Assembly (NCBI GenBank): GCA_015231175.1
Contig: JADGBZ010000007.1
Span: 1,846 to 65,845 of the forward strand
Direction: 5' to 3'
Origin: Magnetococcales bacterium
GTDB lineage: Bacteria; Pseudomonadota; Magnetococcia; Magnetococcales; DC0425bin3
DNA: 64,000 bases
In this document: one piece after another, positions 3,792 to 51,366 of the stretch
How positions within the stretch are numbered: position 1 is the stretch's first letter
How the letters are laid out: each line of letters opens with the position of its first letter
Position numbers and translations under genes: made by a program
Notes under the pieces: generated by a model
Told to the model about the DNA's origin: nothing
Databases searched by the model: none
The model's input: the letters and a program-made list of their open reading frames with translations, nothing else

Positions 3792-3875
3792 CAGGGTCAT
3801 TCCCATACCAGATCAAGCGTTTGCTTCGTTGACTGCCTCACTCGCTCCGCAACCATTCACCATCCGGCCACGCAT

Positions 3876-3965
3876 CGGGGTCCAGGGGGCTGTCTCCCTG
3901 GCTTTGTCCAGGGCAGCGTCCTGGTGGGGCTCGGGGCGAAGCCCTGACAAAGGCCTCCATATCCG
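3876..3965 (+). repeat. REP-like ~90-bp GC-rich dispersed element, copy 1
   Basis: Near-identical to 28032-28120 and related, in inverted orientation, to 16517-16604. Conserved ends CGGGRTCCAGGGGG ... TCGGGGCRAAGCCCTGA. Internal hairpin CCCTGG-CTTTGT-CCAGGG. Lies in the spacer between convergent genes. Confidence 0.75.
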
Positions 3966-4017
3966 GGCTTTTCTTGCAAGGGTGATGAATCGTTGCCAGC
4001 GAGGAAATCCCGTGGCA

Positions 4018-7690: not shown

Positions 7691-8317
7691 ATGAAAAAAT
7701 CCGACGTGATGGCAGTTTTTTCCGCATTTCGGGATGCCAATCCTGAACCGCGTGGGGATTTGCTCTTTCGCAACCCCTTTGAACTCCTGGTTGCCGTGGT
7801 GCTGTCCGCCCAGGCGACCGATCGGGTGGTAAACCAGGTGACGCCGGCCCTTTTTGCGGCGGCGCCCGATCCGCACGCCATGGTGGTTTTGGGGGAGGAG
7901 GGGATTCGGTCTTACATTCACACGGTCGGTTTGTACAACACCAAGGCGAGACATATCCACCTCCTGAGTGGAGAGTTGTTGCGCAGGCATGGGGGAGAGG
8001 TTCCGGACCGGCGTGAAGCCTTGGAGGCCTTGCCGGGGGTGGGACGCAAATCGGCCAATGTCGTGCTCAACGTCGTTTTTGGACAGCCGACCCTGGCGGT
8101 GGATACGCACGTTTTTCGGGTGGCCAACCGGACAGGTCTGGCGGCAGGCAAGACGCCGTTGCAGGTGGAAGAGTTGTTGCTCGCCAGGGTTCCGCCGCCA
8201 TTTTTGTTGCATGCGCACCATTGGTTGATTTTGCATGGCCGGCATGTTTGTCAGGCGCGGCGGCCACGTTGTGAGGGGTGTCTGATTCGGCGTTGGTGCG
8301 CGCTGGGGAAGGAGTGA
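7691..8317 (+). CDS. nth: endonuclease III
   Basis: 208 aa. FELLVAVVLSAQATD, HhH-GPD motif LPGVGRKSANVVL, and C-terminal Fe-S cluster C-x6-C-x2-C-x5-C (CQARRPRCEGCLIRRWC). Confidence 0.95.
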   Translation: MKKSDVMAVFSAFRDANPEPRGDLLFRNPFELLVAVVLSAQATDRVVNQVTPALFAAAPDPHAMVVLGEEGIRSYIHTVGLYNTKARHIHLLSGELLRRHGGEVPDRREALEALPGVGRKSANVVLNVVFGQPTLAVDTHVFRVANRTGLAAGKTPLQVEELLLARVPPPFLLHAHHWLILHGRHVCQARRPRCEGCLIRRWCALGKE

Positions 8318-8445
8318 TCATGGCGGAGCGGGTAGACGATCCATTTCAATAAAAACATCCTTGGATATTTTTTGAAGGGGTGATCGTTGCGGAGCAGGTA
8401 GGAGATCTATTTTTATAAAAACATCCTTAGACATTTTTTTGGTTG
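8314..8445. repeat. 66-bp tandem duplication (2 units, about 80% identical) starting at the nth stop codon
   Basis: 8314-8379 and 8380-8445 align without gaps (15 mismatches by eye). Each unit carries an AT-rich hairpin plus T-run (AAAAACATCC-TT-GGATATTTTTT). Confidence 0.85.
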
Positions 8446-9406: not shown

Positions 9407-9456
9407 CATTCCATCCTTGACTTGCGCTTCTTTTGTCCGAGAGGTGGCTGTTGTTC

Positions 9457-11103
9457 ATGTGTCGAACATTGATGAAAATAATCACAGGATTCATGGTTTT
9501 ATTCATGATGGTGGCGCCTGCCCTGGTTCAGGGACAAGAGCCTGATTCGGTTTATCTGAGAGGAAAGCATGTTCCTTTTGATCAGGCTTTGTTACAGGCG
9601 CATAGAGGAGATGCGGAAGCAAAATACAGTGTAGGTTGGTTTTATATAGATAAAAACGATAAAAAAAATGGTATATATTGGATCAGAAGTGCCGCCATGG
9701 CTGGTTATGTACCTGCCATGGAGGATCTGCCATTTCAGTTGTTGCATTCGATTTATCCCCGCCACGATACTCTTGTGGAGGTTGAATCTGTTGGATGGGC
9801 TCTGAAATCACTTAAGATTAACCCGGATTGCTGGGGTGCCATGGTGGTTATGGCTGGCTATTACCGTTTGGGGTGGGGATTTTCCAGCAACATCAAATTG
9901 GCGAAAGAGTGGGAAGATAAAGCGATACGACTGGGGGGTGCGAAAGCTGCCATTCATTTGGCGTTTTTTAATTGGCCAAAAAATGAGGTGGTATATGATC
10001 CCCATAGGACATTATATTTTCTGAAAAAAGCGTCGGAAGATAACGATTCGTTAGCTCAGGCGCTTCTTGGCCAGTATTATGCGGGCTCTGATTTATTTAA
10101 ATTTAATCCCATTCCACTCAATCCTGACCAATCCCGTTATTGGTTGGAAAAGGCGTTTCAAGCGGGTGAAGGAGGGGGAGCGTTTTGGTTGGGTAAGCTC
10201 TATTATCATGGGAGCGGGGGGTATCCCCGGGATCTGGTCGAGGCCAAGTCCTGGTTTGAGCGTATACCCCGTCTTTATGCAAGAGCAAAATTTCTCTTGG
10301 CAACGCTCTACTGGTCTGGCGTTCCCGGCGCCCCTCCCGATCAGGCAAAAGCCATGGCTTTGTTCCAGCAGGCGGCGGAAGAGAAGAGTGCGCGCGCTCA
10401 GTTTGCCATGGGGCAACTGCATCGTGGGGGATATCTGGGCGGCAAGCCTGATATGACCCAGGCTTATCTCTGGTATCGCAAGGCTGCCAGGAACGCATAT
10501 CCACCAGCAATGACCATGCAGGGTCTCATGAGCCTGAAGGGTGATGGTATTCTGGCCGATCCAAAAGGGGCTGTGTCGCTTTTGCAGGCAGCCGCTGCCG
10601 AAGGAGAGGAAAATGCCCTGTATTGGCTTGGCGTCATGTCCCAGGTTGGCTTGGGTGTTGACAAGAGTTTGTCCCGGGCGCGCACCTGGTTTTTGCGTGG
10701 CGCCGAGGCTGGGGAGGCGCGATCCATGGTCAAACTATCCCTCGACCTGTTTGCGGGCAAAGGGGGGGCGCAGGAGCTTCCTCTTGCCTACCATTGGGCC
10801 AAAAAGGCGGCGCAGAGTGGTTTGCCTCAGGGGCTCTGCTGGGCGGGAACCTTGTTGTATTTTGGTGTTGGCACGCCGCCCGATCCGGAGCAGGCCAGGG
10901 TTTGGTTGCGGCAAGGTTCGGCTGCCGGCATGGAGCCGTGTACGCGCGTTTTGACGGCAGCCTCCCCCAAAACGCCAGGAGACACCGGTATTCGGCCACC
11001 CCTGGTGGAGGCCGTGGCTGCGGATTTATCTAAGGCCATGGATGGGGAGATGGATCACCCCTATCTCCCCATATCGTCCCATTTGGAGGTGTTGCCAAAA
11101 TGA
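9457..11103 (+). CDS. secreted Sel1-like repeat (SLR/TPR-like) protein, paralogue 1
   Basis: ORF track 9433..11103 trimmed to ATG 9457 (GAGGTGG upstream), 548 aa. Signal peptide MKIITGFMVLFMMVAPALVQG. Multiple Sel1 units (A-x-W-x-x-KAA-x-x-G pattern, e.g. AYLWYRKAARNAYPPAM, ARTWFLRGAEAGEARSM). Confidence 0.85.
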   Translation: MCRTLMKIITGFMVLFMMVAPALVQGQEPDSVYLRGKHVPFDQALLQAHRGDAEAKYSVGWFYIDKNDKKNGIYWIRSAAMAGYVPAMEDLPFQLLHSIYPRHDTLVEVESVGWALKSLKINPDCWGAMVVMAGYYRLGWGFSSNIKLAKEWEDKAIRLGGAKAAIHLAFFNWPKNEVVYDPHRTLYFLKKASEDNDSLAQALLGQYYAGSDLFKFNPIPLNPDQSRYWLEKAFQAGEGGGAFWLGKLYYHGSGGYPRDLVEAKSWFERIPRLYARAKFLLATLYWSGVPGAPPDQAKAMALFQQAAEEKSARAQFAMGQLHRGGYLGGKPDMTQAYLWYRKAARNAYPPAMTMQGLMSLKGDGILADPKGAVSLLQAAAAEGEENALYWLGVMSQVGLGVDKSLSRARTWFLRGAEAGEARSMVKLSLDLFAGKGGAQELPLAYHWAKKAAQSGLPQGLCWAGTLLYFGVGTPPDPEQARVWLRQGSAAGMEPCTRVLTAASPKTPGDTGIRPPLVEAVAADLSKAMDGEMDHPYLPISSHLEVLPK

Positions 11104-11124
11104 CCCGAAAGGATGCAAACTTCG
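10107..11124 (+). repeat. 1018-bp segmental duplication, copy 1 (3' two-thirds of SLR gene 1 plus 21 nt past the stop)
   Basis: Aligns without gaps to 11791-12808 (offset 1684 nt). I count 3 mismatches by eye (10266, 11031, 11072). Confidence 0.9.
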
Positions 11125-11140
11125 AGGTGGGCTGTTGTTT

Positions 11141-12787
11141 ATGTATCGAACATTGATGAAAGTAATCACAGGATTTATGGTTTTGTTTATGATGGTGGCG
11201 CCCGCCTTGGTCCAGGGGAGAGAACCTGATTTTGTCATTCTTGGCGAGAAACATGTTCCTTTTGATCAGGCTTTATTGTTGGCGCACGGGGGAGATGTGG
11301 AGGCCCAATATCGTATTAGTCTTCTATATTCTACAAATAAAAACAATAACAAAATAAGTTTATATTGGATGAGAAGGGCTGCTATGGCTGGATATGTGCC
11401 TGCTATGGAATATCTTGTGTTTTATTTGTTCAGCACGATCTATCCCAATCATGATTTTCTCTTGGAGGTGGAGGTTATAGGTTGGGCACAGAAAACCCTG
11501 GCCGTGAAAGCGGATAGTTGGGAGATCATGATGGACATGGCAGTCTTTCATCATCATGGATGGGGTGTGTCAAGAAACGAAAGGTTGGCCAAAATGTGGG
11601 AAGAGTCGGCGTTACGGGTTGGCGGTGCTCAAGCTGCGTTCTTTCTGTCAACCTCCCATGCCCGGGATGGTGTCCTGGATCACGATCCTGATAAACTTCT
11701 GCATTTACTGACCTATGCGGCAGAAGGTAATTACCTTGTTGCACAGGTGTTTCTCGGAAAATATTTTGCAGGGAAGTTATTCAAGAAGGATCCCATTCCA
11801 CTCAATCCTGACCAATCCCGTTATTGGTTGGAAAAGGCGTTTCAAGCGGGTGAAGGAGGGGGAGCGTTTTGGTTGGGTAAGCTCTATTATCATGGGAGCG
11901 GGGGGTATCCCCGGGATCTGGTCGAGGCCAAGTCCTGGTTTGAGCGTATGCCCCGTCTTTATGCAAGAGCAAAATTTCTCTTGGCAACGCTCTACTGGTC
12001 TGGCGTTCCCGGCGCCCCTCCCGATCAGGCAAAAGCCATGGCTTTGTTCCAGCAGGCGGCGGAAGAGAAGAGTGCGCGCGCTCAGTTTGCCATGGGGCAA
12101 CTGCATCGTGGGGGATATCTGGGCGGCAAGCCTGATATGACCCAGGCTTATCTCTGGTATCGCAAGGCTGCCAGGAACGCATATCCACCAGCAATGACCA
12201 TGCAGGGTCTCATGAGCCTGAAGGGTGATGGTATTCTGGCCGATCCAAAAGGGGCTGTGTCGCTTTTGCAGGCAGCCGCTGCCGAAGGAGAGGAAAATGC
12301 CCTGTATTGGCTTGGCGTCATGTCCCAGGTTGGCTTGGGTGTTGACAAGAGTTTGTCCCGGGCGCGCACCTGGTTTTTGCGTGGCGCCGAGGCTGGGGAG
12401 GCGCGATCCATGGTCAAACTATCCCTCGACCTGTTTGCGGGCAAAGGGGGGGCGCAGGAGCTTCCTCTTGCCTACCATTGGGCCAAAAAGGCGGCGCAGA
12501 GTGGTTTGCCTCAGGGGCTCTGCTGGGCGGGAACCTTGTTGTATTTTGGTGTTGGCACGCCGCCCGATCCGGAGCAGGCCAGGGTTTGGTTGCGGCAAGG
12601 TTCGGCTGCCGGCATGGAGCCGTGTACGCGCGTTTTGACGGCAGCCTCCCCCAAAACGCCAGGAGACACCGGTATTCGGCCACCCCTGGTGGAGGCCGTG
12701 GCTGCGGATTTATCCAAGGCCATGGATGGGGAGATGGATCACCCCTATCTCCCCACATCGTCCCATTTGGAGGTGTTGCCAAAATGA
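11141..12787 (+). CDS. secreted Sel1-like repeat (SLR/TPR-like) protein, paralogue 2
   Basis: ORF track 11042..12787 trimmed to ATG 11141 (GAGGTGG upstream), also 548 aa. Signal peptide MKVITGFMVLFMMVAPALVQG. C-terminal 331 aa differ from paralogue 1 at 2 residues. Confidence 0.85.
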   Translation: MYRTLMKVITGFMVLFMMVAPALVQGREPDFVILGEKHVPFDQALLLAHGGDVEAQYRISLLYSTNKNNNKISLYWMRRAAMAGYVPAMEYLVFYLFSTIYPNHDFLLEVEVIGWAQKTLAVKADSWEIMMDMAVFHHHGWGVSRNERLAKMWEESALRVGGAQAAFFLSTSHARDGVLDHDPDKLLHLLTYAAEGNYLVAQVFLGKYFAGKLFKKDPIPLNPDQSRYWLEKAFQAGEGGGAFWLGKLYYHGSGGYPRDLVEAKSWFERMPRLYARAKFLLATLYWSGVPGAPPDQAKAMALFQQAAEEKSARAQFAMGQLHRGGYLGGKPDMTQAYLWYRKAARNAYPPAMTMQGLMSLKGDGILADPKGAVSLLQAAAAEGEENALYWLGVMSQVGLGVDKSLSRARTWFLRGAEAGEARSMVKLSLDLFAGKGGAQELPLAYHWAKKAAQSGLPQGLCWAGTLLYFGVGTPPDPEQARVWLRQGSAAGMEPCTRVLTAASPKTPGDTGIRPPLVEAVAADLSKAMDGEMDHPYLPTSSHLEVLPK

Positions 12788-14102: not shown

Positions 14103-16475
14103 ATGAACAAGCGCATGCTGGTGGATGCAACCCACCCGGAAGAGATCCGTGTGGGCATCGTCCAGGATCAGCGACTCATCGACCTGGATATCGAAACCTC
14201 AACCAAGGAACAAATCAAGGGGAACATCTACCTGGGGCGGGTGACCCGTGTGGAACCCGCCCTCCAGGCCGCCTTTGTCGATTTCAACGGCGGACGTCAG
14301 GGATTTCTCTCCGTCAACGACATTCATCCGAAATATTATCCGCCTCCGGAAGGCAAGGAAAAATCGAACAAGGAAAAGGAAATCGATCCGGCGGAGTCCG
14401 CCGAAGAGGGTGACGAGCCCGAAAATGGTGAAGAGACCGACGAAGATGTGCCCGTTCGTGTACGACGGGCTGCCAATCGTCGCCGTATCCTGCCTATCCA
14501 AAAAATTCTCACCCGAGGTCAATCCCTGTTGCTTCAGGTGGTCAAGGAGGCGCGTGGCAACAAAGGTGCCTCCCTCACGACCAATCTCTCTCTTGCCGGT
14601 CGTTACACGGTCCTGTTGCCGGACAACTCCGGGGGAGGTGGGGGCATCTCCCGCAAGATTGTCGACCCGCAGGAGAGGAAACACCTCAAGGAGTTGATGG
14701 GCAGCCTGGAAATTCCCTCCGATGTCAGCCTGATCATCCGTACAGCGGGATTGGGTCGCACCAAACGGGAAATCACCCGGGACATGAATTATCTGCTCCG
14801 GCTCTGGAAACGCATCCAGGAGAAATCCGCCCAAACCAAACCCCCCTGCGTCATCCACGAGGAGGGGGATCTGATTCTACGCACCATCCGTGATCTCTAT
14901 ACCACCGACATGACCGAAATTTTGATCCACGGTCAGGAGGCCTATCGTCGCGGCAAAGACTTCATGCGTCTGCTCATGCCCCGCTATGTCAAGGTGGTGC
15001 AACCCTATCGGGAAAATAAGCCCATTTTTGCCCAATTCCAGGTGGAAAATCAGATCGAGATGATGCACGAGCGCGTCATCCCCCTGAAGGCCGGAGGCTA
15101 CCTGGTCATCGAATCGACCGAAGCCCTGGTCTCCATCGACATCAACTCTGGGCGGGCCACCCGCGAAAAGGATGTTGAGTCGACCGCCTTCAAAACCAAT
15201 CTTCAAGCCGCCGATGAAATTGCCCGCCAGCTTCGTCTGCGCGACCTGGGTGGATTGATCGTCATCGATTTCATTGATATGGAGGATAAAAAGCACAACA
15301 CGGAGGTCGAGAAGCGCATCAAGGATGCCTTCAAACTGGATCGGGCCAAAAGCCAGATCGGGCGGATTTCCCAGTTCGGTTTGCTGGAACTCTCCCGCCA
15401 GCGCTTGAAACCGGCCTTCAGTGAATCAAACCGGACTCCGTGTCCACGTTGCCAGGGTTTGGGCACCATCCGTTCCGTCGAATCCATGGCCATCCATGTG
15501 ATGCGCATGATCGTGGAAGAGGCTGCCACCAACCGCTACGCCAAGCTGACCTATAACGTCCCTCCGGATGTTGCCAACTATCTGTTCAACCACAAACGGG
15601 CCCAGATCACCTCCCTGGAAGAGGCCCACCATCTCGCCATTGTCATCCTTTCAGATCAGAATCTGCAAACCCCCAATTTTCGCCGGGAAGTGGTCGAACG
15701 CCAAGGGGGAGAACTTGATAACCTGCCACCGTCTGTAAAGGAAAAGGATGTCAAACCGGATGACGAGGACGACATCCTCCAGGATGACGATGACGATGAC
15801 GATGACGATTTCGACGATGACGACGATGATGATGAAAGGCCTGAAGGTCGCCATACCCAACGTGGTGGTGCCAGCGCCGCTGAAACCGATCCGGGCGAAT
15901 CACGACCAGAGGAAGCCACACTCTCCGGGTCCAGGCAGGGGGAAAAGAATGGTGACAGAAAAAAACGTCGCCGTCGCAGGCGCCGCAAGACCTCCCCTGT
16001 AATGCACGATCCCTCTTCCTCCGCTTCGACCTCCGATGTGGTGGAGGGTTCCTCGCTGGCAAACGCGCCCCCCCCCGAGGGCGCGGAAGAGATGGGTGTT
16101 CCAGGTCTCTACCGTTTGACCCAGGAGGGTGCTGCAACAAAGCCCAATGACATCTCCCAGGATTCTCCGACCGACGATGGTGTCTCCTCCGCACCACAGA
16201 AACCACGGCGCCGCCGGCGCCGGCGTCGTTCCCCTCCACGCAGTCTCGGAGAGAAACTGTTTCCGCCACGCCACGGGGCGGATGAGACCCCAGACGATGA
16301 TGTTATCGATGACCGTGACGGCGATCATGATCATCAGAGCCGGATGTCCGAACCGCCTGAGCTGCGCCCGAACAGTATGGATGCAGAGCCAAACCCAGCC
16401 TCTGACTCGGCATCTGCGCGTATGAACCAGGAAGATGCGCCCCCCTCGTCCTCTCCCAGTCAGGAGAATAAGTGA
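14103..16475 (+). CDS. rne: ribonuclease E
   Basis: 790 aa. N-terminal catalytic half typical of RNase E/G (MLVDATHPEEIRVGIV, GNIYLGRVTRVEPALQAAFVDFNGGRQGFLS, IVIDFIDM). C-terminal low-complexity scaffold with Asp-rich and Arg-rich tracts. Confidence 0.95.
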   Translation: MNKRMLVDATHPEEIRVGIVQDQRLIDLDIETSTKEQIKGNIYLGRVTRVEPALQAAFVDFNGGRQGFLSVNDIHPKYYPPPEGKEKSNKEKEIDPAESAEEGDEPENGEETDEDVPVRVRRAANRRRILPIQKILTRGQSLLLQVVKEARGNKGASLTTNLSLAGRYTVLLPDNSGGGGGISRKIVDPQERKHLKELMGSLEIPSDVSLIIRTAGLGRTKREITRDMNYLLRLWKRIQEKSAQTKPPCVIHEEGDLILRTIRDLYTTDMTEILIHGQEAYRRGKDFMRLLMPRYVKVVQPYRENKPIFAQFQVENQIEMMHERVIPLKAGGYLVIESTEALVSIDINSGRATREKDVESTAFKTNLQAADEIARQLRLRDLGGLIVIDFIDMEDKKHNTEVEKRIKDAFKLDRAKSQIGRISQFGLLELSRQRLKPAFSESNRTPCPRCQGLGTIRSVESMAIHVMRMIVEEAATNRYAKLTYNVPPDVANYLFNHKRAQITSLEEAHHLAIVILSDQNLQTPNFRREVVERQGGELDNLPPSVKEKDVKPDDEDDILQDDDDDDDDDFDDDDDDDERPEGRHTQRGGASAAETDPGESRPEEATLSGSRQGEKNGDRKKRRRRRRRKTSPVMHDPSSSASTSDVVEGSSLANAPPPEGAEEMGVPGLYRLTQEGAATKPNDISQDSPTDDGVSSAPQKPRRRRRRRRSPPRSLGEKLFPPRHGADETPDDDVIDDRDGDHDHQSRMSEPPELRPNSMDAEPNPASDSASARMNQEDAPPSSSPSQENK

Positions 16476-16516
16476 ACCCAATTCGTCACTATTCAGTACC
16501 CTTTTAAGAAAAGCCT

Positions 16517-16604
16517 GGATATGAAAGTTTTTGTCAGGGCTTTGCCCCGAACCGTGCCAGGACTCCGTCCTGGATCTGTCCGGTCGCCAACCCCCTGGAT
16601 CCCG
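16517..16604 (-). repeat. REP-like ~90-bp element, copy 2 (inverted, diverged core)
   Basis: The reverse complement shares both termini with copies 1 and 3. The core differs but still forms a hairpin (CCAGGA-CGGAG-TCCTGG). Lies between the rne stop and the cheC-like start. Confidence 0.65.
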
Positions 16605-16732
16605 ATTCGTTACCGGGTGGTGAATGGTGACCCAAATTCTGACAACGGACGGCCATGGTTCGTGGGCAGGGTGTGTCTGTTGTGGCCCGGCCCCATGGGT
16701 CGTGCTGGGCCGTCTGCACAGTACGGGGTGTT

Positions 16733-17392
16733 ATGACCATGGAATTGACCGAGTTGGAACAAGATGCCCTGAAAGAGTTTTTGAACATCGGGCTCGGTAT
16801 GGCAGCCGACTCCCTGAGCCAAATGGTTCATAACGAGATCCTCCTCTCCCTGCCGCAGCTGTCCGTGGTCTCCAAGGAGAGTGCCATCCAGCTGATTGAA
16901 CATCGCAGGGGGGATCGCCTGGTCGCTATTCGACAAAGTTTTTACGGGGAGTTGTCCGGTACGGCACTGCTGGTCTTTCCGGGAGCAAGAAGTCTGGAGT
17001 TGGTTCGTACCCTCCTGGGTGAAAATACTCCGTTGGAGTCCTTGACCGTTTTGGAACAGGAAACGCTCCTCGATATTGGCAATGTGATTCTTAACTCATT
17101 TTTGTCCAGCTTTACCCAAATGATCAATCTGGATTTTGAATTTGATCCTGCTGAACTGATCCATGCCGAGTGTGATGCTCTTCTCGATCTTTCGACGCAC
17201 AAAACGGTTTCTGGTGAGGTGAGAGGGAAGGATATCCAGGATGAACAGGTCTTTTTCTTGATGATGGATTTTAAAACTCATGAGGAGGAGGCAGTTAAAA
17301 ATTCCCTGCATGGCTATATTGCCATGCTTTTTACACAAAAAGATATGGAGAGATTAAAAAAAGAGTTGGAGAGGATCCTTTCTCAATATTGA
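16733..17392 (+). CDS. CheC-like CheY-P phosphatase family protein
   Basis: ORF track 16655..17392 trimmed to ATG 16733 (219 aa). First CheC active-site motif is intact (DALKEFLN followed by 22 residues then P). The second is degenerate (ETLLDIGN, x21, P). Confidence 0.75.
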   Translation: MTMELTELEQDALKEFLNIGLGMAADSLSQMVHNEILLSLPQLSVVSKESAIQLIEHRRGDRLVAIRQSFYGELSGTALLVFPGARSLELVRTLLGENTPLESLTVLEQETLLDIGNVILNSFLSSFTQMINLDFEFDPAELIHAECDALLDLSTHKTVSGEVRGKDIQDEQVFFLMMDFKTHEEEAVKNSLHGYIAMLFTQKDMERLKKELERILSQY

Positions 17393-17440
17393 TCTTCCGT
17401 GAATTTTGAACGCATGTGCTGACAACACAAGAACTGTGCC

Positions 17441-20302
17441 ATGGATACTGACCTGGATCTTGATATTTTTCGGCAAATTCTTGAAAAGAGCTCCTATGGT
17501 ATCATTGTTCTTGATCAGGTCTCCAAAGTTGTATTCTGGAATCGCTGGATGGAAAAAGCGTCACGCATTCCCGCCGCTGGTGTTGTCGGGCAGGTATTTA
17601 CAGACGTTTTTCCAGATTTGCTCGGTACCCGTATTGCGCGTGGCATTGAAAACGCCCTCTCCCAGGGATTGCCCACCACCCTCTCCCACAAGTTGACCCA
17701 TCGGCCCTTTCCTCTCTTTCCTCCTGCTGCCGGGCGGGAAGCGGACGAACGCATGAGCCAACACGTTCTGATCAGTGGCATACGCGCCCGGGACCGGACT
17801 TTTTATTGTACCATCCAGATCCAGGACATTACCGACACCGTCTCCCGTGAACACATATTGCGTGAACAGACCGGGGAGTTGCGTTTGGCCAAGGAGATGG
17901 CACAGAGTGCCAGCCAAGCAAAGGGGGACTTTCTGGCCAATATGAGTCATGAGATTCGCACCCCGATGAACGCCATCATTGGCATGACGCACCTGGCCAT
18001 GCAAACCGATCTGAATCCCAGGCAACTCGATTACCTGACCAAGATTCAATACTCCTCCCAGTCCCTGCTTGGCATCATCAACGATATTCTCGATTTTTCC
18101 AAAATCGAGGCGGGCAAACTGAAGATGGAGTCCGTCGCTTTCCACCTGGATGAGGTTTTGCACAACGTCTCCAACCTGATGACGATCAAAACCGATGAAC
18201 AGGGGCTGGAATTTTGTTTCCACGTTGCCAAGGATCTTCCTCTGGGTCTGGTGGGCGATCCGCTGCGCCTGGGGCAGGTTTTGGTCAATTTGACCAGCAA
18301 TGCCGTCAAGTTTACCCGTGCGGGAGAGATCATTCTGTCCGTCGAATTGGAGGCGTTGACCGAGGAGACGGTGACGATTCATTTCAGTGTCAAGGACAGC
18401 GGCATTGGCATGACTCCAGAACAGATCGCCGGGTTGTTCCGACCCTTTACCCAGGCTGACAGCTCAACGACCCGAAAATTTGGCGGTACGGGTCTTGGTC
18501 TTTCCATCTGCCGGCGCTTGGTTCAGATGATGGGAGGAAACATCTGGGTCGAGAGTCAATCTGGGCTTGGCAGCACCTTCCATTTCAACGCAACGTTTGG
18601 ACGCGCCAACAAGGATCGCCGCCGGTTTCGTTTGCCCGACGATCGATATGTGGGTTTGCGCGTTTTATTGGCGGATGACAATGCTGCGTCGCGCGAAATT
18701 CTGCAACATGCCTTGGAGTCTTTTTCCTTCAAGGTTACCCCTGTGGCTTCTGGTGCCGAGGCCATTGCCGAGTTGGAAAAAGCCCGACATGCCCGGCCCT
18801 TTGACATGGTGTTCGTGGATTGGAAAATGCCGGAGATGGATGGCATTCGCACCACGGAGGAGATCTCCAGACTTTTTCCCACCCAACGCATGCCCAAGGT
18901 GATCATGGTGACCGCCTACGGTCGGGAGGAGGTGCTGCATGCTGCCAAAAGTGTCCATCTCAATTCAATTTTGATCAAACCCGTCAGCCTCTCCCTGTTG
19001 TTCGACACCATTCTGGCCGCTTTGGGGGAAAATGAGCGTGCCATCACCAACCCGCTCCAGACGAGCAGAAATGAGTTGGTACCCCTCCAGTTGTCACCCC
19101 TCCAGCAGAAGATGCACCCCTTGCAGGGCGCCAAAATATTGCTGGTTGAGGATAACGAGATCAATCAGCAGGTGGCGGGGGAACTTCTCGACATGGTGGG
19201 GTTGCAGGTGCGTATCGCCTCCAACGGGCGGCAAAGCCTCATCGCCCTGGCAGAGGAGTCGTTTGATGCCGTGCTGATGGATATTCAAATGCCGGAGATG
19301 GATGGTTATGAAGCCACCCGCAAAATTCGGGAAAATCCAGCCTGGACAACTCTGCCCATCATCGCCATGACGGCCAATGCCCTGGCCGGGGATCGGGAAA
19401 AATGCCTGGCCGTGGGTATGAATGAACATATCGCCAAACCCATTGATCCCCGTGTTCTTTACAGTACCCTTACCCGTTGGATCAAGCCTCCGTTGCCAAC
19501 CGTTGAGCAACCGGTGGTGGCGCAGGCGCCGCGACCTGAACGAACCCAACCGGAACCTGTTGATCACCTGGTATCGCAAGCGACTGAATATAAAGGCATG
19601 GAACCGGATGTCACCCTTCAAGCAACTGAATATAAAAATATGGAGCCGGATGTCACTCTTTTGCCGGAATCCATTCCCGGTTTTGATCTTTCTGTTGGGC
19701 TGAAATATGTGGGTGGCAACAAGAAACTTTACCGGAAACTATTGCTGGATTTTCGGCGCACCCAATGGGATGCAGCCGAGAAGGTTCATCAGGGCATGAC
19801 ATCGGGAGAGATCCATGAGACGCAGCGCCGGGTCCACACCATCAAAGGTATTGCCGGCACACTGGGGGCTTTGGAGTTGCAGGATGTGGCAAAACATTTG
19901 GAAGTTTCCCTGAAGAACCATGACCGCGAACAATCCGCATCCTTGCTCAAGCCTTTCCAAAGTTCCTTGCAAGGTGTCATGCACGCTCTTGCCGTTTTGG
20001 ACTCTCAGGAAACTCCCGTCGATCCGCCCCATGTTGTGAAAGGATCCAAGGAAGGCCATCATGATGGGCCTCTTGATCGAAATGCTTTGGAGTCTGTCAC
20101 AACCCTTTGTCAACAATTGGCCGCATGGCTCGATGAGGGTGACGTTCGCGCCAAAAGCACTCTGGAACAACTCAACAAATGCCTTCCCCCGGCCCATAGG
20201 CAGGTGGTCGGCCTGGTGGCTGAAAAAATGGGCGATTATGATTTTGACGGTGCCAGGGACGCCTTGGTGCAATGGGCCTCATTCATGAAAATATCCCTCT
20301 GA
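17441..20302 (+). CDS. hybrid sensor histidine kinase (PAS-HisKA-HATPase-REC-REC-HPt)
   Basis: 953 aa. H-box [15 protein letters not shown]. ATPase boxes DSGIGM and GGTGLGLSI. Two receivers ([21 protein letters not shown]). C-terminal HPt [11 protein letters not shown]. Confidence 0.9.
19577..19660 (+). repeat. in-frame 42-bp tandem duplication (2 x 14 aa) in the REC2-HPt linker of the hybrid kinase
   Basis: [14 protein letters not shown] / [14 protein letters not shown]. 6 nt differences, three of them synonymous. Confidence 0.85.
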
Positions 20303-20351
20303 ATTGGATGGAATTCATGCATGTTTCTTTTCAGAAGCAGGGGAACTGTCT

Positions 20352-21275
20352 ATGAGTGAAAAACCCGTCATTCTGGTCGTTGACGATGAGAGCTTCAATA
20401 TTGATGTGTTGTTGAACCTCCTGGGGCAGGAATATACGATAACAATTGCCAAGAATGGCGAACAGGCACTCAAGAGGCTGACAGGCAAAACCATGCCGGA
20501 CCTGGTTCTTCTTGATATCATGATGCCGGGCATGGATGGTTACGAGGTGTGCCGGTGCATCAAGGAGGGGTTTCGCACCCGGCATGTGCCGGTCATTTTC
20601 ATCACCGCCTTGAGTGATGTCAGCGAAGAGACCGCAGGGTTCCAGGCCGGGGCTGTGGACTATATTACCAAGCCGTTTTGTCCAGCCGTGGTGACGGCCC
20701 GGGTGCGTACACACATCGAGTTGAAACGAAGCCGCGATCTCCTGGAAATCCTGGCCAAGGAAGATGGTTTGACCGGTATTGCCAATCGCAGGCGGTTCAA
20801 TGAGTTTCTTGAATTTGAATGGAGCCGGGCACAACGTAAACAGACATCCATCTCCCTGACCCTGATGGATGTCGATTTTTTTAAATTGTTCAACGATCAT
20901 TATGGCCATGCTGTTGGGGATGCCTGCCTGCGGCAGGTGGGGCATGCCCTGCGGCGCTCCATGCATCGGACGGTGGACTTGGTGGCGCGTTATGGCGGAG
21001 AAGAGTTTTGCTGTGTTTTGCCCGATACGGAAAGTCCGGGCGCCATGGGCGTGGCCAATCGACTGTTATGTGCCGTTCACGAACTGGCCATCCCGCACCA
21101 TCACTCCAAGGTCGCTGACCACGTCACCATGAGTCTGGGCGTTGCTTCGCTCGTTCCAGCGGCAGGCCAAGGTTCGGAAATACTCATTCATATGGCCGAT
21201 CAGGCGCTTTACAAGGCGAAAAATGGGGGAAGAAACCGGGTTGAGCTGGCGCGAACGGAAGATGCAGCTGACTAG
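20352..21275 (+). CDS. response regulator-diguanylate cyclase (REC-GGDEF)
   Basis: ORF track 20304..21275 trimmed to ATG 20352 (MSEKPVILVVDDE, 307 aa). Receiver LLDIMMPGMDG. GGDEF domain with GGEEF and an RTVD I-site 5 residues upstream. Confidence 0.9.
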   Translation: MSEKPVILVVDDESFNIDVLLNLLGQEYTITIAKNGEQALKRLTGKTMPDLVLLDIMMPGMDGYEVCRCIKEGFRTRHVPVIFITALSDVSEETAGFQAGAVDYITKPFCPAVVTARVRTHIELKRSRDLLEILAKEDGLTGIANRRRFNEFLEFEWSRAQRKQTSISLTLMDVDFFKLFNDHYGHAVGDACLRQVGHALRRSMHRTVDLVARYGGEEFCCVLPDTESPGAMGVANRLLCAVHELAIPHHHSKVADHVTMSLGVASLVPAAGQGSEILIHMADQALYKAKNGGRNRVELARTEDAAD

Positions 21276-21302
21276 AATGGCAAGAAGAGGTGTGTTCTGT
21301 CC

Positions 21303-23042
21303 ATGTTTGACGAAGAGACATTAAAAGTCCTGTTGGCGGAATTTCTTGCCGAAAATCGGGAATCCCTGGACCAGATCGAACGCGGCATCCTGGCCCTGGA
21401 AATGGATCCGGAAAACATGGAACTCCTGAACACCGTGTTTCGCCATATGCATACAGTCAAAGGCAATTGCCGGATGATGGAGTTTTCCCGGCTGGAAGAG
21501 TTGACCCATGCTGCGGAAAATCTTCTTGATCTGTTGCGCGAAAGGAAAATCACTGCGCATCAGGGGAATTGCGGTGTTCTCCTTGGTATCCTCGACACTG
21601 TTCGCCATACGTTGGATGGTATTGAAAGGAGCGGCAGTGAGGGCAATCCGGATTTTTCCCGCCCCATTCAAGCCCTGGAACGACTGACCCGGGGAGGTGA
21701 TTCCGGAAGTACCTCTCTCCTGGTTCCGGATTGTGGGCCGGGCGATTCGAGCGAACCCGCCGACTCTGCCTTGCCTTGTCGGGATGCCGAGCCCGAGCGG
21801 GAAAGATCGGGTGGGTCTGGCCTCCAAACCGTTCGGCTCCCCATTGAGAAACTGGATGCCCTGATGAACATGGTGGGGGAGTTGGGGTCTGCATTCAATC
21901 AGTTGCGATATGCCCTGCACCACGGGACAACAGCAGGTGACACGGTATTGGAAGGAATGGAAACCAGGATTCACCAGCTTCAGGACGAAGTTCTCAAATA
22001 CCGTTTGCAACCGATCGATACCATATGGGAACCCTTGCACCGCCTGGTTCGCGACTTGGCCATGGAGACAGGCAAGAAGGCCATCCTCGATATCCAGGGG
22101 GGAGAGACGGAAATGGACAGAAATGTCCTTTTGACTCTCAAGGAGTGCATGGGGCATTTGCTGCGCAACGCGATAGACCATGGCATCGAACCTCCCCATG
22201 AACGGGAAGTGGCGGGCAAGTCGATTTTGGGACATGTCAGGCTGCATGCGGAACAGAGGCATGGCCAAATTTTTATTGAGGTCTCTGACGATGGCCGGGG
22301 TCTTGATGTGGAGAAAATTCGGACCAAAGCCATCGAGTTGGGATTGCTCGATGCAGAGCAGGCCCGACACCACGCCGAGGAAGAGGTGTTCCGCGTCATT
22401 TTTGAACCAGGTTTTTCCACGGTCGGGCAGGTGAGCAAAATATCTGGACGTGGCACAGGCATGGATGTCGTCAAAAATGCCATGACCAGGCTGAACGGGA
22501 CCATTGCCATTTCCAGTCAACTGGGTCGGGGCACGCAGTTTCGTTTCCGGATACCGCAGACCATGGCCATCGTTCCCTCCCTGCTGCTTGGGAGTGGGGA
22601 TGGACAATATGCTGTTCCTCAAGCCAACATTGTCGAGTTGATCTCCTATTTTGGCGCGGACGTACAACGACACGTCGAGAAGAGATTGCACGGTTTCATG
22701 GTCCGGATACGTGATCGTTTGTTTCCCTTGCTTCCTCTTGACCAGATTCTGCATGCTCCTCTCCACGGTAACCACAGCCCACAAACTCCCGCTTTGCAAA
22801 CCCGGAGCGCATGTCATGTCGTTCTTTTGCGTGCCGAGGGAGGGGAGTTTGCCCTGGCTGTCGAGAAGATTGCCGATCCGATTGCCCTGGTGGTCAAGCC
22901 CATGCTGCGCCTGTTTTCCCACCTGACCATTTTATCTGGAACGGCTCTTCTGCCGGATGGTTCGGTGGCGTTTCTGTTGAATGTTGGAGAGTTGTGTCAG
23001 CTTCAGTCACACGTCCCACCCCCTGTCACCAGCCGGGGTTGA
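21303..23042 (+). CDS. cheA: chemotaxis-type histidine kinase CheA (short form)
   Basis: 579 aa. HPt HTVKGNCRMMEF. ATPase motifs HLLRNAIDHG, DDGRGLD, GRGTGMDVV. C-terminal CheW-like domain. Confidence 0.85.
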   Translation: MFDEETLKVLLAEFLAENRESLDQIERGILALEMDPENMELLNTVFRHMHTVKGNCRMMEFSRLEELTHAAENLLDLLRERKITAHQGNCGVLLGILDTVRHTLDGIERSGSEGNPDFSRPIQALERLTRGGDSGSTSLLVPDCGPGDSSEPADSALPCRDAEPERERSGGSGLQTVRLPIEKLDALMNMVGELGSAFNQLRYALHHGTTAGDTVLEGMETRIHQLQDEVLKYRLQPIDTIWEPLHRLVRDLAMETGKKAILDIQGGETEMDRNVLLTLKECMGHLLRNAIDHGIEPPHEREVAGKSILGHVRLHAEQRHGQIFIEVSDDGRGLDVEKIRTKAIELGLLDAEQARHHAEEEVFRVIFEPGFSTVGQVSKISGRGTGMDVVKNAMTRLNGTIAISSQLGRGTQFRFRIPQTMAIVPSLLLGSGDGQYAVPQANIVELISYFGADVQRHVEKRLHGFMVRIRDRLFPLLPLDQILHAPLHGNHSPQTPALQTRSACHVVLLRAEGGEFALAVEKIADPIALVVKPMLRLFSHLTILSGTALLPDGSVAFLLNVGELCQLQSHVPPPVTSRG

Positions 23043-23112
23043 CCCCTTTGCCTGGGTGAAGATCCGGTGGCGTTGAATATCCGAAATATTGTAAGCGGTT
23101 TGATGAGCGACG

Positions 23113-24696
23113 ATGCAAAACCAGCCCAACCTCTTGCTGGCAGAGTGTGACCCATCGTTGACACAGTGGTTTGATGAAACCCTGCGCACCGACGGGTATG
23201 CGGTGACCCATGCTTGTCATGGTGAGCAGGCTTGGTCACTGTTTTGTACCTCTTCTCCGGATTTACTCCTCCTGGGTGCCGGTATTTCCTTTAAGGAGGG
23301 TATGACACTCTGTTCCCGGATCAAGGCGACCGCGCCAAGTCGTTCCATGCCAATCCTTATGATTGTGGATCCCTCTCCGGAGGAGGGGTGGATTGAGCAG
23401 GCGATTCAGGCCGGGGTGACGGATTTTATCGCCAAGCCGGTCCATGGGGCCATTTTGCGCCACCGTTTACGCCAGTTGCTTGGCAGATCCCTGGCCATCG
23501 AGGAGGCGGTACGGCAGGCCAGGGATATGGCAGACGCAACCATGCGTGCCAAAACCGAATTTTTGGCCACCATGAGCCACGAGATCCGTATCCCCATGAA
23601 TGGCATTTTGGGTATGACGGAACTCCTCCAGGGGGGAACATTGCACCAGGAGGAGCGGCAACGGGTCGATTTTATAAGACAATCAGCACTGAATCTTCTG
23701 ACGATCGTCAATGACATGCTGGATTTTACCAGCATGGATGCCGGTAAGTTAACCTTGCAAAACAATCGGTTCGACTTACACAGACTGTTGGGGGATTTGC
23801 AGGCGACTTTCCAGGATTCTGCTCGTCAAAAAGGGTTGGAGTTGGGTGCCCGCCTCGGTCCGAACCTTCCTGCCACGCTGGTCCAGGATGCTGACCGGTT
23901 GCGACAGATTTTAACCAACCTCCTTTCCAATGCGATCAAATTTACACCGCCGGGAGGAAAAGTTGTTTTGGGAGCAGAACCGACGCGCCGGGAGAAGGAG
24001 TCCTTCTGGATCCGGTTCTTGGTGCAGGATACCGGCATTGGTATTCATCCTGACCAATTTTCGAGACTTTTCAAATTGTTCTCTCCGGGAGACGGCCCCA
24101 CGACAAGCAAATTAGGCGGTGCCGGGCTTGGCTTGATGATTACCAAGCGTCTGATCAAACTGATGGGAGGGTATATTCACGTTGACAGTTCCGTCAACAA
24201 GGGCACGCTTTTTACAGTTGATCTGCCCTTCCTGCACCCCGTGTTTTTGGAAGAGCCCGTCGCATGTGCTGCTCAGGGTGAAGGGCACTCCTTTCCACCG
24301 CATGTGCGGCTGTTGCTGGTCGACGATGACTCCGTCAATCGTGTCGTTGTGCGTGGCATTTTGAGACGGCACGGTTTTGCGATCGAAGAAGCCGTGAACG
24401 GCATGGAGGCCCTGGAAAAGCTGGTTTCCCACACCTATGACCTGGTGCTCATGGATTGTCAAATGCCCCACATGGATGGTTATACGGCCTGTCAGATGTT
24501 CAGAGAAAAAGAAAGCGGGCAACAACACAAGCGCCGCACGCCCATCATTGCTCTGACCGCCAACGCCATGCAGGGAGATCGGGAAAAATGCCTGGAAGCC
24601 GGCATGGATGACTATCTGGCAAAACCCATCCGGGGTGAGGATTTGAAAAGGCTGCTCAGTCATTGGCTTTTCGGCAATTCTTGCCGAAATTGTTGA
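23113..24696 (+). CDS. hybrid histidine kinase with N-terminal pseudo-receiver (REC*-HisKA-HATPase-REC)
   Basis: 527 aa. The N-terminal receiver-like fold lacks the acceptor Asp (DLLLLGAGIS) and the acidic pocket (LLLAECDPS) but keeps the conserved Lys (FIAKPV). H-box MSHEIRIPMNGILGM. DTGIGI and GGAGLGLMI. Canonical C-terminal receiver LMDCQMPHMDG. Confidence 0.85.
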   Translation: MQNQPNLLLAECDPSLTQWFDETLRTDGYAVTHACHGEQAWSLFCTSSPDLLLLGAGISFKEGMTLCSRIKATAPSRSMPILMIVDPSPEEGWIEQAIQAGVTDFIAKPVHGAILRHRLRQLLGRSLAIEEAVRQARDMADATMRAKTEFLATMSHEIRIPMNGILGMTELLQGGTLHQEERQRVDFIRQSALNLLTIVNDMLDFTSMDAGKLTLQNNRFDLHRLLGDLQATFQDSARQKGLELGARLGPNLPATLVQDADRLRQILTNLLSNAIKFTPPGGKVVLGAEPTRREKESFWIRFLVQDTGIGIHPDQFSRLFKLFSPGDGPTTSKLGGAGLGLMITKRLIKLMGGYIHVDSSVNKGTLFTVDLPFLHPVFLEEPVACAAQGEGHSFPPHVRLLLVDDDSVNRVVVRGILRRHGFAIEEAVNGMEALEKLVSHTYDLVLMDCQMPHMDGYTACQMFREKESGQQHKRRTPIIALTANAMQGDREKCLEAGMDDYLAKPIRGEDLKRLLSHWLFGNSCRNC

Positions 24697-26509
24697 TTAA
24701 AAGCAACGTGTCGGGGTCTGGGGGGCCGGCTCCGTCAAAAACCAATTCAAGCATGGTCAGGTCATCCGTCTGTGGGCCGTTTCTGTGCCGTTTTATTTTT
24801 TCCATGACTCCCTGAAAGGGTTGGTCTTCCAGAAGGAGTTCGCCCAGGGCCTGTTGCAGGTTGGCGCTGCCGAACATCTCGCCCTGGGCGTCTTGTGCCT
24901 CGCAGAACCCATCAGAAAAAGCATAGACCCTATCCATCGTATTTGTTGTGGTGCTCTGCTCAATCTTGGCCAGTTCATGTTCGGCGAGAATACCCAGAGG
25001 AAGATGGTTGGAAGGGTAGGAACGGTAGAACTCTTTCTGGTGGAAATGCAATATCTCGGGAATGCCACAGTTCCAGATCAGGAGGCGCCCTTGATTTGGA
25101 TCATGGGCCAGGAAAGCGGCAGCCAGGTACAACTGCCTGGGTAGTTTAAGGTGCAACTTGGCGTTGATCTCATTCAGAATGGCAGGTGGAGCGAAATTTT
25201 TTCGGGTCATGGTGTAAAAAATATCCGCGACCATGGGCCCTCCCAGGGCTGAGGGGAGGCCATGGCCTGTAAAGTCCCCCAGAAGGTAGTGTCGTGTTCC
25301 ATCTGGACGGGCGGCATACAGCAAAAAATCCCCGGCAATCCTCTCCAGGGGGACGGACAAAAGCGTTGCACCCGCATGGCTCATTTTGACGGACCGGTTG
25401 ATTTTTTCCAGCGTATGTTCGACGATTTCCCGTTCATAGGCCAGCTTGTCGCGCTGGTCGCGAACGACTTCCAGAATTTGGACCACTTTTTCCCGACTTT
25501 CCGTCAATGCGAGCATGGCCCGGCGGTTGCGCCGATAAAAATCAGTCATGAATCCAAGCATGAACAGGATTGCCACGCCAGAGACGCTCATGGTCAAAAG
25601 ACGCTGGGAACGGGCCTCTCCTTCTCGGGTCTTGAGGATTGTATGCAGTTTGTCGTGCAGTTGTCTATGACATACAATATTGTTTTCAATTACATAGGTA
25701 ACTGCCAGAAAAAAATACAGGGGATCTGTCTTGACGGTCTTCTCGGACATCAATGTATTGCTGAAGTCAAGAACAGCCAGTAAGTTGGGCTCCAACTCCC
25801 GGTCAAAGCATCCCGACACCGATTGCAGAAAAGGAACCTCTTCCCGGATAAAGCGATGAATCCCTCTTGTTCTTTCCAGATCGCGGTTGACATGCCCCAT
25901 GACTTCGCCAAACCGAATCTGGTCAGTCGGACCGAACTCCCCGGAAGCAAGTATGATACTCACCACAGCGCGCAGACGGCCCATGGATTCACCCAAATTT
26001 GGGTAGTACCTCAGAAAGATTTCCTTTAAATTATAGACCGTCACGTCCACGTCGGTTGACAGCCGAGAACGAAAAGCCAAATTTCTGATGATATCATTGA
26101 CACGGTTGATCATCTGGGTATGGATATCGAAAAGAAGTTTCGGATCGGATGTGCCATGGTCCGGGCTAAAATCGCGCCGAATGGTCTGTTTCGTATCTTG
26201 AAATTCATCTGGAAGAAGAGGGGTGTTGCTGTCCAGTTTATCTTCGAGTTCTTTCCAGTAATGTTTTAAATTATCGCTTGATTCTTTTGTAGATTCCTGT
26301 AAATTGATTTGAGAAAGACCACGCACTCTCTGCATAACGACGACAATGTTGTATAACTCATTGATGCTCATGAGCCCGGAAATTTCTTCTGTCGCTAAGA
26401 TTATTTTCCGACTCTCTTCAGAGATGATGTGGTGAAGCGTGACGATAACCAAAAGTGTTGGTATAAACAAAGCGGTCAAATACCGAACAAGAGATATTTT
26501 CTGATTCAT
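24656..26509 (-). CDS. membrane sensor PP2C-type (SpoIIE/RsbU-like) serine phosphatase
   Basis: ORF track 24656..26635. ATG 26509 (MNQKISLVRYL...) gives 617 aa. An upstream ATG at 26569 is possible. Two hydrophobic segments flank a ~300-aa region. C-terminal SpoIIE-type motifs GDFTGHGLPSAL, VYAFSDGF, TDDLTMLELVF. The 3' end overlaps the convergent kinase gene by 41 nt. Confidence 0.8.
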   Translation of the reverse strand: MNQKISLVRYLTALFIPTLLVIVTLHHIISEESRKIILATEEISGLMSINELYNIVVVMQRVRGLSQINLQESTKESSDNLKHYWKELEDKLDSNTPLLPDEFQDTKQTIRRDFSPDHGTSDPKLLFDIHTQMINRVNDIIRNLAFRSRLSTDVDVTVYNLKEIFLRYYPNLGESMGRLRAVVSIILASGEFGPTDQIRFGEVMGHVNRDLERTRGIHRFIREEVPFLQSVSGCFDRELEPNLLAVLDFSNTLMSEKTVKTDPLYFFLAVTYVIENNIVCHRQLHDKLHTILKTREGEARSQRLLTMSVSGVAILFMLGFMTDFYRRNRRAMLALTESREKVVQILEVVRDQRDKLAYEREIVEHTLEKINRSVKMSHAGATLLSVPLERIAGDFLLYAARPDGTRHYLLGDFTGHGLPSALGGPMVADIFYTMTRKNFAPPAILNEINAKLHLKLPRQLYLAAAFLAHDPNQGRLLIWNCGIPEILHFHQKEFYRSYPSNHLPLGILAEHELAKIEQSTTTNTMDRVYAFSDGFCEAQDAQGEMFGSANLQQALGELLLEDQPFQGVMEKIKRHRNGPQTDDLTMLELVFDGAGPPDPDTLLLINNFGKNCRKAND

Positions 26510-26591
26510 TTCTATCTTTATTTTCTGTGCCCGACGTGCTCGAAAAGGTATCCCTGCACCGCCCCCCATTACAGAACCCTGTACACCCACT

Positions 26592-26604
26592 CCCCCCCCC
26601 CCCC
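26592..26604. repeat. C13 (G13 on minus strand) homopolymer in a divergent intergenic region
   Basis: Direct count: 13 consecutive C at 26592-26604, between the phosphatase gene (minus) and the HAMP-REC-HPt gene (plus). Confidence 0.95.
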
Positions 26605-26686
26605 GGACTATATTTTTTCCTGAATTCACTGTCAACGAACTGAGTGTCCAGTCAACTCCTGACCCGTAAGATGGATCGGAATCATC

Positions 26687-27922: not shown

Positions 27923-28031
27923 TGCCAACGCTGCGTTGCAGATAAAGTCAAGGGTGCTGAATAGTGGCTCAACCGTGTCGATTTGATGTGCAGAAATGTT
28001 CCAATGCTCCGGGGACAGCTCAACCATGAAA

Positions 28032-28120
28032 CGGGGTCCAGGGGGCTGGCTCCCTGGCTTTGTCCAGGGCAGCGCCCTGGTGGGGTTCGGGGCGAAGCCC
28101 TGATGAAGGCCTTCATCTCC
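28032..28120 (+). repeat. REP-like ~90-bp element, copy 3
   Basis: About 90% identical to 3876-3965. Lies in the spacer between convergent genes (stops at 27922 and 28162). Confidence 0.75.
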
Positions 28121-28161
28121 CAGCCTTTCTCAAAAGGGTGCCGAATAGATACGGTCAGCCA

Positions 28162-51261: not shown

Positions 51262-51296
51262 ATTGTACCCATTCACCATCCGCTAACGCATCGGGA

Positions 51297-51318
51297 GCCA
51301 GGAAGCCGGCTTCCTGGC
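51297..51318. terminator. perfect 22-bp palindrome between convergent genes (possible bidirectional terminator)
   Basis: GCCAGGAAGCC|GGCTTCCTGGC, between the stops at 51261 (+) and 51367 (-). No flanking U-tract. Confidence 0.45.
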
Positions 51319-51366
51319 AGGGCCTAAGACAACGTCCCGGAAGCAAACCCTCCCCAGACCCCTGAC

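Follow-up and report, generated by a model that had tools for sequence, protein, structure and literature searches.

Several gene-end spacers in a 64,000-nucleotide stretch of a Magnetococcales genome (the whole of which is referred to here as the window) contain related GC-rich sequences rich in inverted repeats, which raises the question of what kind of repeat this is, whether it moves and whether its hairpins act as RNA or as DNA. An initial annotation had described three copies of a dispersed element of about 90 bp, and had likened it to REP/BIME or MITE-type sequences. We took up this question with sequence comparisons between this genome (~67 kb) and three relatives (~80 kb in all), and with scans of genome, metagenome and viral collections.

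Copies, structure and gene setting

The three annotated copies were confirmed (starting at 3876 and 28032 on the plus strand and at 16517 in inverted orientation), as were the termini that they share, but alignment including their flanks showed that the element is really ~148 bp long with terminal inverted repeats, and not ~90 bp. A search of the window with a profile built from six family members found exactly four copies (E-values between 1e-22 and 1e-38) and no further match with E below 1, and pairwise BLAST between copies gave E = 5e-36 and 1e-24, so the copies are not chance resemblances:

3849..3996, plus strand: copy c1, full-length, 148 bp, delimited by alignment (profile match 3850-3998, E=1.4e-38)
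16485..16631, minus strand: copy c3, full-length, 147 bp (profile match 16483-16630, E=1.2e-36)
about 28029..28152, plus strand: copy c2, without the 5' terminal arm (profile match 28007-28153, E=1.1e-35)
51265..51366, plus strand: copy c4, decayed (direct-repeat family D5; profile E=7.7e-22)

The decayed copy c4 had been missed in the initial annotation, and a fifth copy, belonging to a second subfamily, lies just outside, ~2.5 kb past the window end (L245:9646-9758; ~window coordinate 66,540). The 3' limit of c4 was placed at the stop of the adjoining gene, after comparison with relatives. A candidate further copy at 62885 was dismissed as a chance match. The statement that copies differ at only a handful of positions holds for the 90-bp cores at 3876 and 28032, which are 91% identical (82/90), but not for either of these against the reverse complement of the core at 16517 (73% identical). 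The fifth copy sits between an MgsA-like AAA gene and crcB, and its subfamily is common to Magnetococcus sp. DMHC-1 (L121:2679-2835).

Each element consists of short terminal inverted repeats around two or three tandem GC-rich hairpins, the hairpin units being 17-20 nt long, and the parts of c1, with the corresponding H2 hairpins of c2 and c3, are as follows:

3849..3865, plus strand: 5' terminal inverted-repeat arm of c1, GCAACCATTCACCATCC, pairing with 3980-3996
3876..3901, plus strand (hairpin 3882-3901): tag CGGGGT and hairpin H0 of c1, CCAGGGGG-CTGT-CTCCCTGG
3908..3924, plus strand: hairpin H1 of c1, CCAGGGC-AGC-GTCCTGG
3925..3947, plus strand: tag TGGGGC and hairpin H2 of c1, TCGGGGC-GAA-GCCCTGA, with a G.T pair
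3980..3996, plus strand: 3' terminal inverted-repeat arm of c1, GGGTGATGAATCGTTGC, pairing with the 5' arm in the fold
28087..28103, plus strand: hairpin H2 of c2, TCGGGGCGAAGCCCTGA
16534..16550, minus strand: hairpin H2 of c3, TCGGGGCAAAGCCCTGA

H0 and H2 are preceded by a GGGGT/C tag and H1, in c1 and c2, by CTTTGT. The hairpin tag of the family as a whole is YGGGGT, and the final unit, made up of the tag and TCGGGGC-GAA-GCCCTGA, is the most conserved part. The ends of c1 are GCAACCATTCACCATCC...GGGTGATGAATCGTTGC and those of c3 are GTCACCATTCACCACCC...GGGTACTGAATAGTGAC, such that both start with G(C/T)(A/C)ACCATTCACCAYCC and finish with GGGTRNTGAATMGT(T/G)(G/A)C, and in both the arms, ~17 nt long and mismatched at one or two positions, pair with each other when the whole element is folded. 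The ends of the element can also be given as the pair CTATTCAG/CATTCACC, and the DMHC-1 copy of the second subfamily (at L121, as above) ends CTATTCAG...CTGAATAG. The hairpins are conserved by structure, as double changes keep their pairing in two places: c4 retains the 5' arm and H0, with most of H2 gone, and its H0 stem is preserved by two compensatory changes (CCAGGAAG/CTTCCTGG), while H2 of the DMHC-1 copy reads TTGGGGC-GGA-GCCCCAA and is fully compensated.

All four window copies are intergenic, and the three annotated ones are located at gene ends as described. Copy c1 lies within a 432-bp spacer between convergent stops at 3585 and 4018, c2 within a 239-bp spacer between convergent stops at 27922 and 28162 (FimV-like gene), and c4 occupies a 105-bp spacer between convergent stops at 51261 and 51367, while c3 begins 9 nt past the rne stop (16473-16475), upstream of a cheX-like gene whose real start is at 16739. 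The genes flanking the copies include rne, the cheX-like gene, a response regulator, the FimV-like gene, a radical SAM gene and others. Next to c4, the 575-aa gene (51367-53094, minus strand) finishes with bases, CTTAAAAGAGTTCGATATCATCC on the plus strand, that resemble the 3' end of the element; c4 was ruled out as the source of this gene's stop codon, as the protein also ends in GGDDIELF* in element-free relatives. The likeness is therefore a coincidence, with c4 lying right beside the stop codon.

Such a setting could point to action at the RNA level, with a hairpin stack in the 3' UTR that terminates transcription or blocks 3' exonucleases, thereby stabilising the upstream mRNA, and with copies kept for this function. 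Enterobacterial REPs have been described as stabilising upstream mRNA, the hairpins of the present element are stable, four of the five copies immediately follow a stop codon (three being in convergent spacers) and c1, c2 and c4 are sense to the upstream gene. However, we consider this explanation unlikely. A terminator role, put forward in the initial annotation, was not borne out by an intrinsic terminator scan, which found no GC hairpin followed by a T-run within c1, c2 or c3, and c3 is antisense to both of its neighbours, while a cluster of the family in a sibling genome is in a divergent promoter spacer. Nor is there an orientation bias of the kind that such a role might produce, as members of the wider family show no consistent orientation relative to adjacent genes (17 sense and 29 antisense relative to tandem neighbours, by crude ORF calls that are noisy in GC-rich DNA). 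The z-scores of whole-element RNA folds are modest (~-2.1 on both strands), Rfam gave no match at the gathering threshold for the window or for 17 related loci, with relaxed matches amounting to noise, and the decay of c4 suggests that this copy is not under selection. RNA-level roles are possible as side effects. No sigma-70-like promoter was found within c1, c2 or c3.

The assignment to the REP/BIME or MITE kind stands in the sense that this is a dispersed, non-coding, hairpin-rich repeat in gene-end spacers. The annotation could not place it in a known family, and neither could we: besides the Rfam result, literature searches by literal sequence, by Magnetococcus repeats and by R64 inverted repeats returned nothing relevant, and whole-element BLAST against plasmids gave no match. 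Further copies exist and none matches a described family, contrary to what the annotation had named as grounds for refuting it.

Presence, absence and mobility in related Magnetococcales

Two orthologous spacers are filled in some genomes and empty in others, which indicates that the family is mobile now or was so recently. The spacer from rne to the cheX-like gene is 263 bp with c3 in the window, and likewise in a second assembly of this organism, whereas the same spacer is free of the element in Magnetococcus sp. DMHC-1 (75 bp) and in GCA_015229045.1 (91 bp). Conversely, the spacer from gapR to the 575-aa gene is element-free in the window (234 bp) and in DMHC-1 (346 bp), whereas in GCA_015229045.1 it is 488 bp and holds a c3-type cluster of at least 240 bp, the flanking proteins being 97.6% (gapR) and 85% (575-aa gene) identical. 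At the site that c2 occupies in the window, GCA_015229045.1 carries two units head-to-head after the FimV-like gene (L318:1-190), and a contig of this assembly ends inside a copy, as expected when a repeat breaks assembly. The cluster of GCA_015229045.1 is at L318:6800-7055, in a divergent spacer, and is interrupted by an assembly gap. Gene order across rne, the cheX-like gene, a hybrid histidine kinase, a GGDEF response regulator and a CheA-like gene is conserved between these Magnetococcales (window 14103-27922 against L121, L123 and L247), and the regions upstream of rne are not.

Within the window, the truncation of c2 and the decay of c4 are as would be expected of dead copies. Together with the polymorphism they form the picture of a non-coding repeat family that is mobile and undergoes turnover, although presence and absence between genomes at 77-85% protein identity could alternatively reflect deletion or recombination. 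We are firm that this is a non-coding hairpin-stack repeat family which is moving, or has recently moved, in these Magnetococcales.

If the element moves then an enzyme from elsewhere must move it, since it encodes nothing itself. We found no transposase, RAYT or relaxase in the vicinity of the copies or among the flanking ORFs. The mobilising enzyme would be encoded elsewhere in the genome, and may be an HUH-type ssDNA nuclease or a DDE transposase. The second of these would be at work in a classical MITE, that is, a deletion derivative of an insertion sequence whose terminal repeats are read by a DDE transposase with duplication of 8 bp of target, the hairpins being passengers, and the flanks of c3 bear upon this:

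16477..16484, no strand assigned: left flank of c3, CCCAATTC, possible target-site duplication
16632..16639, no strand assigned: right flank of c3, CCAAATTC, possible target-site duplication

These flanks match at 7 of 8 bases as an 8-bp direct repeat, which, being a single instance, is weak evidence for target duplication; no direct repeat was found at the flanks of any other copy, including c1 (whose flanks are inverted instead), c2 and the L121 copy, and the metagenomic relatives described below have no consistent target duplication, most of them showing none. The element does resemble bacterial MITEs in its size (~150 bp, and so below 200 bp), its terminal inverted repeats of ~17 bp, its lack of coding capacity, its intergenic location and its insertion polymorphism, and it shows most of the features by which MITEs are recognised, though it has no known parent element and its target duplication is not consistent. 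The ends themselves do not behave as a fixed transposase site would, however, as the outermost 5 bases differ between c1 and c3 with matching changes in their partners so that complementarity is kept (GCAAC...GTTGC in c1 and GTCAC...GTGAC in c3), which suggests selection for pairing. Moreover, it is the internal tag and hairpin and not the ends that are conserved across phyla, relatives are often long palindromic doublets resembling REPINs, and no autonomous element or insertion sequence with the same ends was present among the loci collected. A classical MITE origin is, on this evidence, improbable.

The tagged hairpin in other phyla, transfer origins and phages

The most conserved unit of the element was found far beyond the Magnetococcales. 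A scan of a genome collection with the 17-mer of H2 gave at least 120 loci in many phyla, and although about a quarter of the 17-mer matches listed are chance matches in coding DNA, the others share features that the search had not fixed, namely that the hairpin follows a GGGGT tag, which is itself often abutted by another, variable hairpin. Where one extra base follows the tag, it covaries with the base next after the hairpin (a C at one place going with a G at the other, and vice versa). YGGGGT is the tag of the window copies and, among the matches listed, of 96 distinct relatives. These collection scans were pattern-based, so that the counts are lower bounds shaped by the patterns used.

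A scan of metagenomes, the counts from which are again minima, fixed only a CCAGGGG-type hairpin 1 and the 5' arm of H2. Among the matches listed, 86 of 99 distinct instances, chosen solely on the H2 5' arm, form at least 6 of the 7 pairs around a 3-nt purine-rich loop, and the second pair of H2 covaries (T-A in 50, C-G in 26, T.G in 7 and mismatched in 3), while a shifted control on the same relatives almost never pairs. A perfect hairpin 1 abuts the tag in 123 of 194 tagged hairpin-2 instances among the matches listed; its stems are very diverse (CCAGGGGC, CAAAGGGAC, ACGGCTTAC, CCAACTTTT and others), whereas the tag and H2 are near constant. Many instances of this module recur several times in the same genome, placed between ordinary genes, and many form head-to-head doublets 100-300 bp apart or palindromic elements of at least 300 bp. 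No Rfam family covers the wider module instances, and, judged by their translations, the ORFs that modules bracket appear to be ordinary genes and not transposases. Orientation relative to local GC skew was weakly biased (50:31, p=0.045, for samples that are not independent). In Candidatus Magnetaquiglobus chichijimensis (L061:5950-6400) three modules of unequal preservation, each followed by GGTTTG, lie within 300 bp as a BIME-like cluster.

The same unit is present in plasmid transfer origins, a link which, like that to phages, came from scans in which the hairpin sequence was fixed and only the tag, hairpin 1 and the covariation of the closing pair were free. GGGGT-TCGGGGC-GAA-GCCCTGA is an inverted repeat in IncI1/R64 and ColE1-type transfer origins, and H2 of c1 matches the distal inverted repeat of the IncI1/R64-type oriT at all 17 positions. 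After nikA, an E. coli IncI1 plasmid reads GGGGTGTCGGGGCGAAGCCCTGACC, then a AATTGTAATAGCGTC...GACGGTATTACAATT repeat and then GCACATCCTG, which we take to be the R64 oriT, comprising the repeat bound by NikA and the nick region. Its first hairpin would then be the second, shorter R64 inverted repeat, presumably the one implicated in termination of transfer, and the tag and hairpin are on the strand of the CATCCTG nick region, ~55 nt to its 5' side; we assume this to be the R64 strand that is nicked at nic. In Acidobacteria, Cupriavidus and Rubrivivax the module is found just upstream of, and divergent from, a NikA-like gene that is followed by a MobA/VirD2 relaxase gene, and in ColE1-type Mbe/MobC plasmids the tag and hairpin are between rop/mobC and the origin (3,594 plasmid records). 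The full two-hairpin module is also present ~200 bp upstream of mobV in B. thuringiensis pTX14-2, and a primer places the same sequence inside the 370-bp oriT2 region of pBMB0228 (PMC4902927). A cryptic E. coli plasmid of ~1.56 kb (e.g. NZ_CP029109.1) has two inverted copies of the tag and hairpin, one of them beside an R64-like nick region; this plasmid also appears as a contig in Rhizobium and Paramuribaculum assemblies (L010, L070), probably through contamination.

The likeness to the IncI1 (R64-type) oriT is thus close at the level of the unit, where GGGGTG-TCGGGGCGAAGCCCTGA-C adjoins nikA on the CATCCTG strand with the G.T pair kept, but it does not extend to the setting. Neither nikA nor a relaxase gene adjoins the window copies, which also lack a 17-bp NikA-type repeat and a YATCCTG nick region; all that weakly recalls the latter is ATATCCRGG, 13 nt downstream. 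In the origins the hairpin-closing pair is extended (by G-C or C-G, covarying) and hairpin 1 is often absent.

A scan of a viral collection found 65 loci with the module. In Microviridae that carry it (including OM869693.1) it is on the coding, and hence packaged, strand in 5 of 5 genomes, in a non-coding spacer and alongside divergent capsids; one such spacer had no match in known phages. In 13 contigs of one phage-like lineage the motif is 46 nt upstream of a rolling-circle replication initiator gene. The phage-like contigs L252, L274 and L278 have two three-hairpin modules ~1.86 kb apart in the same orientation, bracketing an SPP1-type portal gene. When the three cores were folded as DNA, the G-rich strand gave -21.1, -24.4 and -17.3 kcal/mol and the complement -18.0, -19.0 and -11.8 kcal/mol; the G-rich strand folds better because the G.T pair of H2 becomes an A-C mismatch on the complement.

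What the repeat may be

Taking these lines together, we lean, with only moderate confidence, towards the view that the element is mobile but non-autonomous, a REP/REPIN- or MITE-like repeat of ~150 bp which has moved recently in this lineage and whose tagged hairpins act in single-stranded DNA. The tagged hairpins are likely to be the cis-acting site, and most likely act when the G-rich strand is single-stranded. Action in ssDNA is favoured because the unit is conserved, is strand-asymmetric and is found on strands that pass through an ssDNA stage in conjugation and in phages; this case is circumstantial, coming from associations and a small energy asymmetry. The unit could be recognised by the mobilising enzyme or by a host factor, and copies at gene ends would persist as insertions there do little harm.

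Of known repeats, REP/REPIN-RAYT and BIME sequences are similar in being short, extragenic, imperfect palindromes with a tag at the 5' foot of the hairpin and many dispersed copies in gene-end spacers, and the relatives of the window copies (metagenomic and in Magnetaquiglobus) are likewise often clustered or in inverted doublets, in copy sets that are lineage-specific. The REP/REPIN tag is GTAG or CGTC, the only tag classes in a survey of tagged palindromes (PMC3733652), whereas it is YGGGGT here, and without a GTAG/CGTC tag membership of the RAYT/REP family cannot be claimed. The window copies also differ in being one oriented stack between short terminal repeats and not a doublet, and while REP sequences are usually species-specific, the core hairpin here is nearly the same across phyla. 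The resemblance to bacterial MITEs, set out above, differs from the classical case in that conservation is centred on the internal hairpins.

A further alternative is a host-function ssDNA signal, that is, the site of a conserved factor (for ssi/sso-like priming, or a hairpin that ends strand transfer), with the chromosomal copies either providing or parasitising this activity. The module would suit this in that it is on ssDNA-stage strands together with unrelated initiators (the MOBP NikB-type oriT, ColE1-type, MOBV, Microviridae and the phages with a rolling-circle Rep), and its IncI1 position just 5' of the nick would be the last-transferred part, a sensible place for a single primer. Known ssi and sso sequences (the G4 origin and the sso of rolling-circle replicons) are likewise stacks of two or three hairpins in a non-coding region of ssDNA replicons, working on one strand only and in the ssDNA form, and stem-loop I of the complementary-strand origin of phage G4 is a mini-hairpin of the same GC-GAA(A)-GC type. 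The G4 origin was rejected as a relative, since it has only this mini-hairpin type in common and is without the GGGGT tag; beyond the mini-hairpin there is no sequence homology with ssi or sso, and the multi-copy chromosomal spread is unlike that of any known one. No annotation ties the motif to priming, and most family members are without CTG, the start triplet used by the E. coli primase. In addition, it is hard to see why a chromosome would need such sites by the hundred, and the decay of c4 argues against selection on each copy, so that we find the host-signal explanation doubtful.

A broader and still speculative proposal, to which we give some small weight, is that the YGGGGT-tagged hairpin pair is a pan-bacterial ssDNA signal, read by one conserved host activity, of which the repeats in the window are the mobile form. 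If so, the module would flag, at origins with unrelated relaxases, the end at which the transferred strand trails, and would likewise flag the packaged strand of Microviridae and other rolling-circle replicons, and also hundreds of REP/MITE-like chromosomal repeats in many phyla, with complementary-strand priming, hairpin-dependent strand termination or a G-rich structure-binding protein as the candidate activities. Taken alone, the element adds one to the many intergenic repeats that are specific to a lineage; it can serve to mark recent genome change in uncultured Magnetococcales, and it is a likely source of contig breaks in their assemblies. Its core, however, is shared by experimentally defined transfer-origin regions, ssDNA phage spacers and chromosomal repeats across phyla, and if one factor reads them all then REP-like repeats would be connected with conjugation and ssDNA replication, giving a testable handle on repeat function.

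The window also contains other repeats. A 300-nt direct repeat, 98% identical, at 10093-10392 and 11777-12076 lies in tandem paralogous ORFs (9433-11103 and 11042-12787, both Sel1-like according to the annotation of the second assembly), suggesting a recent gene duplication or conversion. Short tandem duplications are found at 8308-8439, 19577-19660, 55777-55904, 62341-62426 and 63247-63369, with units of 41-66 nt in two or three copies that are 80-95% identical, some of them inside ORFs.
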